Source: an uncultured Candidatus Saccharibacteria bacterium (GTDB lineage Bacteria; Patescibacteriota; Minisyncoccia; Phycocordibacterales; UBA9973). From it: a stretch of 64,000 nt of DNA. Made by a program: the position numbers and the translations under genes. Below, in pieces: positions 34,417 through 39,398 of the stretch. Every line of letters begins with the position of its first letter. Position 1 is the stretch's first letter. The stretch spans positions 1,693 to 65,692 of the forward strand of contig CAZHJZ010000002.1 of NCBI GenBank assembly GCA_964532495.1, given 5' to 3'. The notes beneath the pieces were generated by a model. That model worked only from the letters and a program-made list of their open reading frames with translations, was not told the origin of the DNA and ran no database searches.

Positions 34417-34508
34417 AGTGAAAGTATACTCTCAATACAAACACCCCGCAAATAGTTTGCGGGGTGTTTGTATTGAGGCTTGGATCAGGAAATGAATCCT
34501 GTCCTACT

Positions 34509-34590
34509 TACACTTAATGGCTGCACGCCCTTGATCGCTAAAGTTTAAAAGTATCACGCGGGGCGCGGTAACTAGCCTACCGGCTAGTTA
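34509..34590 (-). ncRNA. conserved structured RNA element, copy B (hairpin with GGUA loop contains the dnaK TAG stop; followed by a 15-bp terminator-like hairpin before the next gene)
   Basis: UAACUAGCC-GGUA-GGCUAGUUA then CCGCGCCCCGCGUGAUAC...CGAUCAAGGGCGUGCAGCCAUUAAGUGUA; block order and pairing identical to copy A. Confidence 0.5.
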
Positions 34591-36467
34591 GTCTCAGCAT
34601 CCCGAATCTTTTCATCCTTCACCTCAGCATTCTGAGGTTCAGCTGTAGTACCAGCTTCTGCCTGGCCAGCCTTGTTCATTGCTTCGCCAATCTTTGACAT
34701 AGCAGCTGAAAGTTCCTGACTCGCTTTGGTAATAGCTTCGAGATCTGCGCCATCTTTTACTCCTTTGAGAGCGGTAATTTTAGCATTCACTTCGTCTTTC
34801 ACTTCAGCTGGAATCTTTGCTTCGTATTCCTTAAGTTCTTTTTCAGCTGAGAAGATCATCATTTCCGCAGTGTTCTTTGTTTCTGCGCCTTCTTTCTTTT
34901 TCTTGTCTTCTTCTGCGTGAAGTTCAGCATCTTTCTGCATTTTTTCGATTTCTTCTTTTGAAAGGCCAGATGAAGCTTCGATGCGGATAGTCTGAGTTTT
35001 TCCTGAAGACTTTTCCATTGCCTTCACATTCAAGATACCGTTAGCGTCCACATCAAAGGTAACTTCAACCTGAGGCATGCCTCGTGGTGCTGGTGGCACT
35101 CCATCGAGGATAAATCGTCCGAGAGACTTGTTGTCAGCGGCCATTGGTCGTTCACCCTGAACGATATGGATTTCAACCGAAGTCTGGTTATCAGCAGCGG
35201 TTGAGAATACCTGTGACTTTGAGGTTGGGATGGTAGTGTTTTTTTCGATGAGTTTTGTTCCAACGCCACCAAGTGTTTCAATACCGAGCGAAAGCGGAAT
35301 AACATCAAGCAAGAGCACATCGCGAACATCTCCCTTGAGAACTCCACCCTGAACTGCTGCTCCGAGAGCAACTACTTCATCTGGATTAACTGTGAGGTTT
35401 GGTTCCTTTCCGAAGAATGCTTTTACCGCAGCCTGCATTGCTGGCATACGAGTCTGTCCTCCAACGAGGATGACTTCATTGATTTCGCCAACTTTGAATG
35501 GTGATGCCTCGATAGCGCGTTTAGTGATCATCATTGCGCGGTCGATGAATTCCTGAGTCAATGTTTCGAGATCTGTTCGTGACATTGTTCGAACGAGGTG
35601 CAATGGTCCTGCTTCGCCAGATGTGATGAATGGAATGTTTACTTCTGTCTGAACTGCAGTTGAGAGTTCGATCTTTGCCTTTTCAGCAGCATCGTCGAGA
35701 CGCTGTCGAGCAAGCGCATCCTTGCGGAGGTCGATGCCGTTTTCCTTTTGGAATCCGTCTGCGAGCCAGTTGATGATTTTTTGGTCGATGTCTTTACCTC
35801 CCAAGTGTGAGTCACCATCAGATGACTTCACTTCAATAACATCATCTCCAACTTCGAGAACTGAAACGTCGAATGTTCCTCCTCCGAAGTCGAATACTGC
35901 AATCTTTTCGTTTTTGTTCTTGTTAAATCCGTATGCAAGCGCTGCAGCTGTCGGCTCGTTGATGATACGCATGACATCAAGTCCTGCGATCTTACCTGCG
36001 TCTTTTGTTGCCTGTCGCTGTGCGTCGTTGAAGTATGCTGGAACTGTAATAACGGCTTCAGTGATCGTCTCACCGATGCGAGATTCAGCATCTGCTTTCA
36101 TCTTCTGGAGAATCATCGCTGAGATTTCTTCAGGACGCTTCCATTCTTCTCCGAACTTTACTTCAATTCCGCCGTTTGCAGATTTGCGAACGTCGAATGG
36201 AACTGACTTGATGTCGCTCTGAACATCAGCTTCGTCGAAGTTGTGTCCGATGAAACGCTTGATCTGATAGATAGTGTTCTTTGGGTTTGTAACGCTCTGG
36301 CGTTTTGCAACCACACCAACCAATCGCTCGCCAGTTTTTGAAAGGGCGAGAATGGAAGGAGTCGTGCGCATGCCTTCAGCGTTTTCCAATATTTTCGGCT
36401 GACCACCTTCGATGATAGCAAAGGCCGAGTTTGTTGTACCGAGGTCAATACCAAGTATTTTACTCAT
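34584..36467 (-). CDS. dnaK: molecular chaperone DnaK (Hsp70)
   Basis: 627 aa; [27 protein letters not shown] signatures. Confidence 0.95.
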
Positions 36468-36578
36468 AGTTTTTACTCAAATTACTTCTAATGGTTGTTG
36501 CTAAAAGTTATCCACAGCTATTATATAGAACACTAGAACTTTTGACAAGTATTTCGTGACCACTAAATAACTGTTGAT

Positions 36579-36606
36579 ATTATATAGATATCTGATATAC
36601 TGTCAA
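36579..36606 (-). promoter_or_regulatory. putative sigma70 promoter for dnaK (TTGACA-16-TATAAT) within a divergent promoter region; no CIRCE element found
   Basis: hexamers on minus strand ~100 nt upstream of dnaK ATG; a second TTGTCA-17-TATAAT overlaps; plus-strand TTGACA-16-TAAATA faces the 36784 gene. Confidence 0.4.
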
Positions 36607-36625
36607 ATATCCAATAAATATTAGG

Positions 36626-36665
36626 TAAAAAGAAAAATGGCCAGCGCTCGAACGCTGGCCAATAA
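36626..36665 (-). terminator. strong hairpin terminator oriented on minus strand, upstream of the dnaK promoter
   Basis: GGCCAGCG-cucgaa-CGCUGGCC followed on minus strand by AUUUUUCUUUUU. Confidence 0.55.
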
Positions 36666-36783
36666 ATGATTGATAGATATAATTGTTGCCCTAAAAAATC
36701 GGCATTAAAAAGAACAACGCTACCACGTCCGAATATCGAGAACTTACGGACCTACATTCATAGACAATTATATCACACTATTT

Positions 36784-37314
36784 ATGAAAAAGCAAGACTA
36801 TTCAAAAAAAATCTTAAAGATCCTCTCTGAAAAACCAGCTATTTCAGTGCCTGAACTTGCCGAGAAGGTGGAAACTGATCCTACCAACAAAAAGCTTTCC
36901 TACGCCATTACACGCTCTCTGAAGGGCCTTCGGGAGGCCGGTCTGATCGAGAACTTGCCTTCCGGACAAGGACAATTTGCCCGCCTGACAAAAGAAGGTA
37001 GGAAAAAGGCTCATAGCCTGAACCTCGAATCAAGCTCCATGCTCCCCAACCCTATTTGGGATGGGTTCTGGCGTATTATTATTCTTGATCTCCCTGAAGA
37101 GCGTAAGAACGAGCGAGAGTCACTTCGCTATTTACTAAAGAAAGCAGGATTCGTTTGCCTTAAGAACTCAGTCTGGATATCTATGTACCCTTTCGAACAT
37201 TTGTTTAAAAATATAAAAAAAGATCTCGGGCTTACTACGGAATTTATTATCTTTGTTACGAATACGCTTGATGAAGAAACTGAAGTTGAATTCATGAAAG
37301 TATTTCAAAAATAA
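36784..37314 (+). CDS. winged-helix regulator with C-terminal Cas2-like domain (PaaX-like)
   Basis: 176 aa; N-terminal wHTH (ISVPELAEKV...), C-terminal WRIIILDLPEERKNERESLRYLLKKAGFVCLKNSVW matching Cas2 core pattern hhhhhYDxxxxxxRxRxxLxxxLxxxGxRxQxSVF. Confidence 0.45.
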   Translation: MKKQDYSKKILKILSEKPAISVPELAEKVETDPTNKKLSYAITRSLKGLREAGLIENLPSGQGQFARLTKEGRKKAHSLNLESSSMLPNPIWDGFWRIIILDLPEERKNERESLRYLLKKAGFVCLKNSVWISMYPFEHLFKNIKKDLGLTTEFIIFVTNTLDEETEVEFMKVFQK

Positions 37315-37350
37315 AACACCGACTTTCATCGGTGTTTTATTTTTATTTCT
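37313..37350 (+). terminator. rho-independent terminator
   Basis: AAAACACCGA-cuuuca-UCGGUGUUUU + UAUUUUUAUUU. Confidence 0.8.
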
Positions 37351-37459
37351 TTGGTTCCTTTGCCTTTTTAGGCTTCTTAACCTCCTTTCGCTGGCTGTTA
37401 TTTCCTTTTGCCATAAAATTATGTTGATTATTTGGTGCTAATACTTTTATTGTACACTA

Positions 37460-38113
37460 TTACTTTTTCAATTGGAATATGTTTACTCGTGCTGGACGCA
37501 AAATCTTGTCTTTCGCCTTATATCCTTTCTGAATAACTTTTGCGATCGTGTGATCTTTTGTAGTTTCTTCCGTTTCAATATTTTCAATCGGCTCATGCAG
37601 GTTGTGATCAAATGCATCGCCTTCTTTTGCTGGAATTTCATCGATACCGTTGTCATTCAATACTTTAATCAGCTGCTGATGGATATATTCAACGCCCATG
37701 CGCCAGTTCTTTTCTACTTTCTCCCAAGCTTCCTTGTTTGCGAAAGCCATATCATATGCGTCCAATACAGGAAGTAAGTCCTCTGTCATTTTCTCTCGAA
37801 CATAACCGCCCATTTGGGAAATGCGGTCTGACTCGCCTTTTTTGAAATTCTGAAAATCTGCACGCTCTCGCTGAAGCTGAGTGAGGTAATCCATTTTTTC
37901 TGCGCGAGCTTCCTTGAGATCTTTGCGGAGTTTCTTGAGGGTGGCCTTGAGATCTTCTTCTCCGTCGGCATTGAATACGAATTCAACGACATCATCGGTA
38001 TCTTCTTCGGGAATTTCAGCTTGTATTGGGTCTTTTGGGTCTAGTTCATCATTCATGCTACTCATTATACTCATACAGAAAATAAGTTCAATTCTCTCGT
38101 AAAAAGCCCTCAC
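37460..38113 (-). CDS. grpE: nucleotide exchange factor GrpE
   Basis: 217 aa (start uncertain); acidic N-terminus, long helix, C-terminal GrpE beta domain. Confidence 0.8.
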   Translation of the reverse strand: MRAFYERIELIFCMSIMSSMNDELDPKDPIQAEIPEEDTDDVVEFVFNADGEEDLKATLKKLRKDLKEARAEKMDYLTQLQRERADFQNFKKGESDRISQMGGYVREKMTEDLLPVLDAYDMAFANKEAWEKVEKNWRMGVEYIHQQLIKVLNDNGIDEIPAKEGDAFDHNLHEPIENIETEETTKDHTIAKVIQKGYKAKDKILRPARVNIFQLKK

Positions 38114-38137
38114 TCATTGGGGACTTTTTATTTTTGT
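38101..38137. terminator. terminator-like hairpin with flanking A/U tracts
   Basis: AAAAAGCCCUCACUCAUUGGGGACUUUUUAUUUUUG. Confidence 0.45.
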
Positions 38138-38159
38138 TTGAAGAAAACTTGATAAATAC

Positions 38160-39398
38160 TTAAGCAGATTTACCTGCAACATATCCGGTAGTCCAGCACA
38201 ACTGAAGTGAGAATCCTCCAGACGGTCGGTTGATATGAAGAAGGTCTCCTGTTACATACAGATTGCTGAGCACTTTTGATTGCATAGTTTTGGTATCTAT
38301 TTCATCAAGTGTCACTCCTCCGTCGGCTACGACTGCGCGATCAAATCCCATGAGGTTTGTTACTGTAACAGGGAGCGCTTTGAGCAAGTGCACGATCATT
38401 TTGCGATGTTCTTTTGATACGCTGTGCACTTTTGTTTCAAAATTTATTTCTTGCAGCAATGTCATGATGGCATACGATGTTCCCTCCGGAGTAATTTCTT
38501 TAAATATTGACTTCAGCATTTTGTTTTTGTTTGCATCGAATACTTTGAGAATTTGCTTTTCAAGCGTTCCATGATCAGTATCAGGATACGCATCAATTTC
38601 AGCTCGAACCCAGCCAGACTGGAGCAATTCAGAGACTTGCGTAGAGCTATTTAAGATAAGAGGCCCGGAAAGGCCGAAGTGCGTGAAGAGCACTTTCCCT
38701 TTTTTGGAAAACTGGCGCTTGTCCTCGAGAAAGAAGCTGATCTTCATGAATGAAAGAGAAACGCCGGCGAGAGATTTTATCCATTCTTCATGCACCGCAA
38801 TAGGCACAATTGTAGGAGTCGGAGATTTTACAGTATGACCAAGATCAGTAAGCCATTTAAATCCGTCACCGGTTGAACCGGTTTCTGGATGGGATTGTCC
38901 GCCAGTCGCGAGGATATATGATCGGGCTTGATACTCTTGCTTTCCGGCCATTATTCCAGTGATCTTGCCATCTTCATGAAAGATTCTAGTAACTGTTGCA
39001 TTCGTCTCTACTGTAACGCCGGCTTTCTGAATGGCCTTTTTCATGACGTTGCATACATCTGTCGCCTTTTCTGTTTTAGGAAATGCGCGATTGCGAGCTT
39101 GCACTACAAGCGGCAATCCTCGGGATTCAAAGAAAGTGAAGGTATCTTTTGCGGAAAATTGTGAAAAAGGAGAATGGAGATACGGCTCAGACTTGCCGTA
39201 AATCTTGAGGAATTGCCTAACATTGAACTCTGCGTTGGTAATGTTGCAACGTCCGCCACCGGTGATATTGAGCTTTTCGCCGAGATGCTTGTTCTTTTCA
39301 AGTATGAGAACTTTTTTGCCATTTTCGGCCGCAGTAAGAGCCGCCATCATTCCTGAAGCGCCGCCGCCTACCACTATTACATCCCATACTATATTCAT
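38160..39398 (-). CDS. HI0933/YhiN-family FAD-dependent flavoprotein
   Basis: 412 aa; VIVVGGGASGMMAA Rossmann motif; HI0933-like architecture. Confidence 0.75.
   Translation of the reverse strand: MNIVWDVIVVGGGASGMMAALTAAENGKKVLILEKNKHLGEKLNITGGGRCNITNAEFNVRQFLKIYGKSEPYLHSPFSQFSAKDTFTFFESRGLPLVVQARNRAFPKTEKATDVCNVMKKAIQKAGVTVETNATVTRIFHEDGKITGIMAGKQEYQARSYILATGGQSHPETGSTGDGFKWLTDLGHTVKSPTPTIVPIAVHEEWIKSLAGVSLSFMKISFFLEDKRQFSKKGKVLFTHFGLSGPLILNSSTQVSELLQSGWVRAEIDAYPDTDHGTLEKQILKVFDANKNKMLKSIFKEITPEGTSYAIMTLLQEINFETKVHSVSKEHRKMIVHLLKALPVTVTNLMGFDRAVVADGGVTLDEIDTKTMQSKVLSNLYVTGDLLHINRPSGGFSLQLCWTTGYVAGKSA

Follow-up and report, generated by a model that had tools for sequence, protein, structure and literature searches.

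The window, a stretch of 64,000 nt from contig CAZHJZ010000002.1 of an uncultured Candidatus Saccharibacteria bacterium (GTDB lineage Patescibacteriota; Minisyncoccia; Phycocordibacterales; UBA9973), encodes dnaK (34584..36467; Pfam HSP70, E=1e-241) and grpE (37460..38113; Pfam GrpE, E=4e-38) on the minus strand. Between them the open reading frame (ORF) listing shows a plus-strand gene for a protein of 176 aa (36784..37314), hereafter the regulator, which is convergent with grpE and separated from dnaK, its predicted target gene, by an intergenic region of 316 nt (36468..36783). Gene order, strands and spacer were as in an original prediction made from the DNA letters, which had proposed that the chaperone locus may be controlled by this protein and not by HrcA. 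This proposal is strongly supported by a near-universal linkage of the regulator gene to dnaK, a conserved operator-like palindrome and the restriction of this motif to the locus. Judged by sequence comparison, the regulator quite probably represses the dnaK operon and its own gene as a dimer that acts at a palindrome of 30 bp, and stress would relieve the repression. The system seems to be a switch for chaperone genes that has not been described before and that serves hundreds of ultra-small species of the Candidate Phyla Radiation (CPR)/Paceibacteria in place of HrcA and its operator, the controlling inverted repeat of chaperone expression (CIRCE).

The protein had been read as a winged helix-turn-helix (wHTH) joined to a Cas2-like, PaaX-like domain, with a search by hidden Markov models (HMMs) proposed as a check, and both this search and fold comparison bore the reading out. 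PaaX_M (PF20803, 'PaaX protein central Cas2-like domain') matched residues 92-167 in Pfam with E=5.9e-20 and 71.6 bits against a cutoff of 24, HTH_24 matched the N-terminus with 23.3 bits (cutoff 21.9), and MarR, ArsR and AsnC-type HTH families gave weak Pfam matches to residues 6-60. The NCBIfam model TIGR01573 (cas2) stayed below its threshold with 15.8 bits (cutoff 24.5) for residues 97-134, and PF09827 (Cas2) gave no match in Pfam. TIGR02277, the PaaX equivalog of NCBIfam, reached 34.3 bits against a cutoff of 264.55, and this over residues 45-147 only. PaaX_C gave no Pfam match at E<=10, the protein ending at residue 176 right after PaaX_M, and neither HrcA nor MerR families matched in Pfam or NCBIfam.

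An AlphaFold2 (AF2) model built on 30 homologues (mean predicted local distance difference test score, pLDDT, of 79.8) placed helices at residues 6-16, 22-29, 36-51 and 70-78 and a beta hairpin at 55-68, and together with the HMM matches this delimits the N-terminal winged helix to about residues 6-78. It is followed in the model by a linker of low confidence or disorder (residues 80-88) and a beta-alpha-beta-beta-alpha-beta fold at residues 96-174; from Pfam and the model the C-terminal PaaX_M/Cas2-like ferredoxin-fold domain was set at residues 92-174. Foldseek comparison of the model with the PDB led to E. coli PaaX (8a39, E=3e-6) as top match, followed by the PaaX-like 3l09 and 3kfw and, weakly, by MarR-type wHTH proteins and two Cas2 chains (E ~0.02-0.03). 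PDB sequence searches with the single protein or a profile gave nothing useful, PaaX surfacing by the fold search alone. The residue D102, invariant in the regulator alignment, adjoins the first strand (96-101 in the AF2 model) of the C-terminal domain; the metal-binding Asp of Cas2 stands at the end of what is probably the corresponding strand. From domain matches and modelled fold, the regulator is a predicted truncated PaaX-type transcription factor, consisting of wHTH and PaaX_M without a ligand-binding domain. PaaX itself comprises a wHTH, a middle dimerisation motif and a C-terminal domain that binds its inducer phenylacetyl-CoA (PA-CoA) (PMC9493321). We took Pfam PaaX_M to be this dimerisation module. 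The Cas2 likeness of the regulator domain is probably structural and not a sign of nuclease function.

Homologues of the regulator were numerous (2127 at E<=1e-3), and the best 120 of the 2127 were all at least 65% identical, had about 175-180 aa and came, where a source was named, from metagenome-assembled genomes (MAGs) of Candidatus Paceibacterota, Nomurabacteria or Minisyncoccia. Alignment of 30 regulator sequences showed 53 invariant columns, a strong conservation for CPR proteins, and a profile search of 1.84 billion cluster representatives led to 3594 clusters at E<=1e-3, with most of the best 150 having about 180-200 aa. When one genome per GTDB species was scanned, 412 stretches were found to encode a relative of the regulator. 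Eighty such species-representative loci were fetched and searched by tblastn with the DnaK and GrpE of the window: dnaK was located directly upstream of the regulator gene and on the opposite strand in 75 of them, the five remaining contigs ending 0.5-1.6 kb upstream of the regulator gene, before dnaK becomes visible, and grpE was located downstream and convergent in 60 of the 80. The same dnaK-regulator arrangement was present in six indexed contigs with Pfam-annotated genes (L001-L006). Many of the third-party annotation (TPA) MAG records of loci L008-L086 are titled 'uncultured Candidatus Saccharibacteria bacterium', although the loci are typical of Paceibacterota/Nomurabacteria, and the title looks like a generic placeholder, not a true classification.

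Subfamilies with about 35-40% identity to the window protein are encoded divergently from grpE-dnaK-dnaJ (L207-L209) or show the arrangement regulator-grpE-dnaK (L210). As these subfamilies keep the regulator, a variant of the palindrome and grpE-dnaK-dnaJ, the association between regulator, operator and DnaK operon is probably older than the lineage of the window. They also bear on the statement that the gene sits where hrcA normally resides, which proved loose: in the canonical operon order hrcA-grpE-dnaK-dnaJ, hrcA precedes grpE in the same direction and does not separate grpE from dnaK. The distant relatives L207-L210 suit the comparison better, with a regulator gene directly upstream of grpE-dnaK-dnaJ, though divergent. 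The linkage to dnaK is a mark of this one clade and not general to wHTH + PaaX_M proteins, since a large, still more distant family of PaaX_M proteins (P0162-like paralogues; L211-L213, P0157-P0270, P0388-P0506) shows no dnaK linkage and variable contexts. Members of this Patescibacteria family have about 190 aa, a hydrophobic N-terminal segment and the motif form WDKKWR...LQNSVWVYPYDCE; they often bear an annotation as Cas2 or PaaX, for some of them in the form 'CRISPR-associated endonuclease Cas2', and their neighbours are non-chaperone genes such as type IV pilin genes, gyrA and Fic/MazE.

Lining up the short intergenic regions led to a conserved 30-bp palindrome, absent from the original prediction, which was present in every dnaK-regulator intergenic region examined. 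Its family consensus is ACAAGTATTTCGYGRYCRCGAAATACTTGT and its usual position 34-37 nt before the regulator ATG; in the window, this predicted operator occupies 36545..36574 with the sequence ACAAGTATTTCGTGACCACTAAATAACTGT. With a position weight matrix (PWM) from 63 distinct instances (36 bits), the window operator scored 38-39 bits and was the sole match of at least 8 bits in the 64 kb, the best of 20 window shuffles reaching 15.8 bits. Exactly one site of at least 16 bits was detected in 85 of 86 related loci (881 kb), and none in the remaining one, a 2.3-kb contig. A scan of metagenome contigs with the pattern TTTNGYGRYCRCNAAATACTTG gave at least 120 matching stretches. Among the 120 listed, about 100 adjoin dnaK and/or the regulator gene; the other 17 had low PWM scores, and those inspected lay mostly inside ORFs on GC-richer contigs with neither gene, which we read as chance matches. 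No second regulon member, such as groESL, was found among the listed metagenome matches at this stringency, nor was an operator detected at other chaperone genes in the 64-kb window or the flanks of about 12 kb of its relatives. At this stringency and in the sequence scanned, the motif is specific to the dnaK-regulator locus.

The distant relatives carry variant palindromes with the same outer arms. These were located in the grpE-regulator spacer in L207 (TTGACAAGTTTTTCA-N6-TGAAAAACTTGTCAA), L209 (TTGACAAGTATTTTGCGTACGTAAAAATATTGTCAA) and L210 (similar to the former two), whereas that of L208 is found directly upstream of grpE; the central bases covary with the regulator subfamily. Among 115 distinct operators, the mirrored pairs 4/27, 5/26, 6/25, 7/24 and 11/20 showed 23-52 non-complementary combinations each (52 at 7/24, 38 at 11/20, 32 at 6/25 and 31 at 4/27), and the strongly conserved positions were conserved in sequence. 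Because half-site positions vary independently, where compensatory change would be expected to maintain a helix, the pattern argues for a protein-binding DNA site rather than an RNA helix. Operator and regulator gene were separated in five cases, by a 175-nt insertion in the window and L007, by genes in L034 and L041 and by a 178-aa ORF in L208, and in all five the operator stayed at the head of the dnaK-containing unit, which points to dnaK as the target of the operator. A further candidate, L120 (Ga0116171_10003604), in which dnaK and the regulator gene are 6.5 kb apart with an operator at each, was rejected as a fold-back assembly artefact: the contig is a mirror image with all genes duplicated in inverted order around position ~7128, and thus an assembly chimera.

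The overlapping divergent promoter-like sites toward dnaK and the regulator gene that had been described from the letters were also present in a consensus scan of the spacer, in which promoters were called from consensus matches alone. Toward dnaK, on the minus strand, the upstream site (36579..36606) consists of TTGACA (36606-36601), a 16-nt spacer and TATAAT (36584-36579), matching 12/12 consensus positions, and a proximal dnaK site (36520..36548) of TTGTCA (36548-36543), a 17-nt spacer and TATAAT (36525-36520), matching 11/12. The regulator site on the plus strand (36574..36601) shows TTGATA, a 16-nt spacer and a TG-extended TATACT. The proximal dnaK -35 box TTGTCA overlaps the left arm of the operator, the -35 box of the regulator abuts its right arm, and the operator spans about +1 to +28 of the transcript expected from the upstream dnaK site. 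To place the window among its relatives, 150 distinct loci were anchored on the operator (operator at 0-29, regulator gene on its right-hand side). Toward dnaK, 82 of the 150 loci had a TATAAT-like hexamer at -25, and 67 had the -35 box TTGTCA at -2, in the left arm. For a second dnaK-directed promoter, 55 loci had the -10 at +38 and 90 the -35 at +61 or +62 (counts 63-90), the latter overlapping the start codon of the regulator gene (ATGTCAA). On the regulator strand, the -35 was in or beside the right arm with TA-rich -10 candidates about 15-17 nt later, which implies a predicted regulator mRNA that is leaderless or has a very short leader in most relatives. All three promoter elements occur in the window at equivalent coordinates, and all three operator-promoter positions are of the repressor type: a bound protein would occlude the -35 boxes of two back-to-back promoters and occupy the region from about +1 to +30 of the third.

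From this arrangement we infer DNA binding by the regulator, the sign of the regulation and the nature of the stress signal as follows. The regulator would bind the palindrome at 36545..36574 as a dimer, possibly as two dimers, and thereby block the proximal dnaK -35, abut its own -35 and lie over the initial ~28 nt of the upstream dnaK transcript. The bound regulator would switch off dnaK, together with its own gene in most relatives, and in the distant relatives it would repress grpE-dnaK-dnaJ. Proteotoxic or heat stress would then lead to a loss of binding and to dnaK induction. Two inputs appear likeliest, because the PaaX_C effector domain is missing and the predicted regulon is the DnaK operon itself. 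One would be feedback by free DnaK, acting as co-repressor or as chaperone for the repressor as with HspR, the other an intrinsic thermolability, with heat-labile dimerisation or DNA binding as in RheA, CtsR and some HrcA proteins. In its broadest form, the proposal is that a clade of truncated PaaX-type proteins serves as dedicated DnaK-operon stress regulator across a large part of the class Paceibacteria of the CPR/Patescibacteria; HrcA, HspR, CtsR and RheA would be joined by a further, non-homologous family of bacterial heat-shock repressors that has an operator of its own, 'ACAAGTATTTCG-N6-CGAAATACTTGT', and a Cas2-like domain working as temperature- or DnaK-sensitive dimerisation switch. 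To this wider claim we would give an even chance.

Several points weigh against repression of dnaK as proposed. The regulon scan spans the 64 kb of the window and flanks of about 12 kb, and sites at groESL, clpB and similar genes or an hrcA gene may exist elsewhere. The two alternative dnaK promoters are both predicted only, and 30 bp is long for a single wHTH dimer, so that two dimers may bind. The insertion puts the regulator ATG of the window 209 nt from the operator and contains a second plus-strand promoter-like site (36656..36683), and for both reasons autoregulation may be weakened in this lineage. In addition, a site centred near -46 could in principle serve an activator. The regulator might then bind the palindrome and activate dnaK in a Class II-like manner, the operator centre lying about 46 bp upstream of the predicted starts of the proximal dnaK and the regulator promoters, where some activators work. 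However, both promoters have near-consensus -35 and -10 boxes (11-12 of 12), so that activation should be needless, and the operator overlaps the -35 boxes and occupies a roadblock position on the upstream dnaK promoter. To our knowledge, all dedicated chaperone-operon regulators with palindromic operators (HrcA, HspR, CtsR, RheA) are repressors, and from these points taken together activation is unlikely.

The palindrome might also work chiefly at the RNA level, as a hairpin of the dnaK 5' leader that affects stability or serves as a thermometer, or be bound by another factor, with the regulator merely syntenic. Transcription from the upstream promoter would place it at the 5' end of the dnaK mRNA, and CIRCE, too, influences mRNA stability. 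We nevertheless consider this quite improbable, as the non-complementary combinations at the five mirrored pairs show that sequence is kept and not pairing, the central bases track the regulator subfamily as expected for the co-evolution of a protein with its site, and the palindrome would be untranscribed from the proximal promoter; no Rfam family was detected in the intergenic region or the insertion at gathering or E-value thresholds. If, on the other hand, the regulator controlled only itself or unrelated genes, its adjacency to dnaK would reflect synteny beside the ribosomal-protein/rpoA cluster, and the whole neighbourhood rpsM-rpsK-rpsD-rpoA-rplQ-rplM-rpsI ... grpE/dnaK is indeed syntenic in many loci. 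Such an explanation is very improbable, because separated operators stay with the dnaK unit (window, L007, L034, L041, L208) and the linkage outlives the rearrangement from grpE-dnaK-dnaJ to dnaK / regulator / grpE. Moreover, L210 is without the ribosomal cluster, yet keeps regulator-grpE-dnaK, and the variable contexts of the paralogous family indicate that linkage is not general to such genes. An active nuclease or toxin-like module, which would make the protein a component of defence or addiction, could be suspected from the weak Cas2 similarity in TIGR01573 and Foldseek, the invariant D102 and the occasional annotation of paralogues as Cas2. That the protein scores under the Cas2 cutoff, is single-copy, very highly conserved and fixed beside a housekeeping gene, and shares the middle domain described for PaaX as a dimerisation motif (PMC9493321), makes this extremely improbable, and no CRISPR-like direct-repeat array was detected in the 64-kb window and no cas gene in the ORFs examined, a full cas1 search of the window not having been made. 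Repression of dnaK from the palindrome thus remains the reading we prefer.

Alignment of the window with L007-L010 located the lineage-specific 175-nt insertion at 36610..36783, between the ancestral start (ATGTCAA, overlapping the dnaK -35) and the present regulator ATG. It is common only to the window and its closest relative L007 (88% protein identity), and it could not be explained as a repeated or mobile element, as no other copy was found in the window or in any locus but L007. The insertion contains the minus-oriented terminator hairpin noted before: a GC-rich, terminator-like hairpin with T tract is present (36628..36661, minus strand; stem 36661..36638; 10 pairs, 7 of them GC), but as part of a lineage-specific insertion it does not belong to the conserved system, being kept in L007 with one mismatch and missing from all other loci. 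The insertion also holds an extended -10 on the minus strand, TGATATAAT (36775..36767), and an antisense RNA of about 130 nt could run from there to the GC hairpin as terminator. This region folds better than its shuffles (z=-3.9), the long-range stem not being conserved in L007. GC-rich hairpins were also seen in the AT-rich dnaK-regulator spacers of L027, L049, L076 (AAAATCCCGATCCGATAATCGGGG), L035, L066 and L084; the predicted dnaK 5' leader holds some of them, and the hairpins could be terminators, small repeats or RNA structures.

In long dnaK-regulator spacers, almost every additional ORF that separates the operator from dnaK has the orientation of dnaK, and these ORFs appear to have been inserted into the operator-controlled dnaK unit. 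One of them, an ORF of 87-89 aa (MxDPxKxDFxQLPKKFxDGAxGAFNK...), occurs in the operator-dnaK gap on the minus strand in L001 (9620-9889), L032 (5603-5866) and L046 (5599-5865); it shows a weak similarity to DUF3467 (E=0.003, below cutoff), and it may encode a small protein under common control with DnaK. Other small ORFs, unrelated and in part membrane-like, have been inserted on the dnaK strand between the operator-controlled promoter and dnaK in L010, L012, L020, L023, L033, L041, L047, L048, L056, L065 and L073. The gap seems to collect variable cargo across species.

In the window, the neighbours of the regulator gene are dnaK, grpE and genes for a DUF3298 protein and an HI0933-like flavoprotein. 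A hairpin 3' of dnaK (34431..34477, minus strand) has an unusually long perfect stem of 20 bp, 10 GC pairs and only a weak T tail, and the dnaK transcript of the window is probably monocistronic and ends there. The regulator-grpE gap holds a bidirectional terminator-like hairpin (37307..37344; 16 pairs, with an A run on one flank and a T run on the other). As grpE of the window has a promoter-like site of its own and no operator, it is probably outside the predicted regulon in this lineage, whereas in the distant relatives grpE comes first among the genes behind the operator. Its listed start is GTG 38113 and the real one is probably later: TTGAAC-16-TATAAT (38091..38064) lies inside the 5' end of the ORF with an in-frame ATG about 8 nt past the -10, which hints at a leaderless grpE mRNA.

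Searches for known chaperone control gave no match. CIRCE (TTAGCACTC-N9-GAGTGCTAA) was detected at up to 3 mismatches neither in the 64-kb window, as stated before for the locus, nor in 211 sources totalling 1.79 Mb, and the HspR-associated inverted repeat (HAIR; CTTGAGT-N7-ACTCAAG) was not found in the window at up to 2 mismatches. No CtsR or RheA box was found near the locus, the PaaX box TGATTC-N27-GAATCA was absent from 36300-38300 at up to 2 mismatches, and none of the ten window ORFs of 300-360 aa that were checked encodes HrcA. In the literature covered, which is incomplete, we found no report linking a PaaX-like or Cas2-like protein to dnaK, HrcA or heat-shock control in CPR/Patescibacteria/Parcubacteria.

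Gene regulation in CPR/Patescibacteria is almost unexplored, with few members cultured and few transcription factors having assigned targets. Here, one regulator is paired with a specific predicted operator and a target gene across the 412 stretches of the species collection and many metagenomes, and the pairing is testable in vitro with synthetic DNA and recombinant protein, circumventing the need for a culture. If the proposal is true, a new protein family would be added to the few known repressors of chaperone genes in bacteria, and the way in which reduced genomes substitute for HrcA/CIRCE or sigma-32 control would become apparent. A Cas2-like fold would gain a defined non-CRISPR role, in dimerisation or sensing by a transcription factor, and studies of CPR organisms would have in the operator a stress-responsive promoter element.

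Compared with known systems, the regulator resembles the Cas2/VapD family in the beta-alpha-beta-beta-alpha-beta fold of its C-terminal domain and the conserved D102 beside the first strand; it differs in the fusion of this domain to a DNA-binding domain, and with a score under the family cutoff, no CRISPR-cas context, its flanking genes being of the chaperone and ribosomal kind, and no CRISPR array in the window it is not a member of Cas2. With PaaX it shares a homologous wHTH + PaaX_M core and the best structural matches (8a39, 3l09), and PaaX is likewise a repressor, acting by promoter occlusion, and autoregulated (PMC9493321). In contrast to PaaX, the protein has about 130 residues fewer and no C-terminal PA-CoA-binding domain, scores 34 bits where 264.55 are required, has no paa genes nearby and is paired with a compact 30-bp palindrome instead of TGATTC-N27-GAATCA (PMC9493321). 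By homology it therefore belongs to the PaaX superfamily, but by score, missing PaaX_C, gene context and operator it is not PaaX. The repressor-style layout, with an inverted repeat separating the promoter of a (grpE-)dnaK(-dnaJ) operon from its first gene, is reminiscent of HrcA/CIRCE, as is the regulator gene immediately upstream of grpE in the distant relatives, whereas the regulator has no HrcA domain, is divergent and not co-transcribed, and CIRCE is absent from the 1.79 Mb searched. HspR of actinobacteria, Helicobacter and Deinococcus represses the dnaK operon, is autoregulated and uses DnaK as co-repressor. Similar to HspR/HAIR, the predicted regulon here is roughly the dnaK operon and the regulator gene, a palindromic operator lies at the dnaK promoter, and the regulator has no small-molecule-binding domain, so that chaperone feedback is plausible; HspR, however, is of the MerR type with its gene at the end of the dnaK operon, while the present protein combines wHTH and PaaX_M, is encoded divergently and has no HAIR. 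As expected for a chaperone-operon repressor, a conserved, locus-specific palindrome is located on the promoter of the dnaK operon beside the regulator gene, and we rate the system as the known regulatory logic of HspR/HAIR and HrcA/CIRCE, in which a non-homologous family supplies the regulator and the operator is new.

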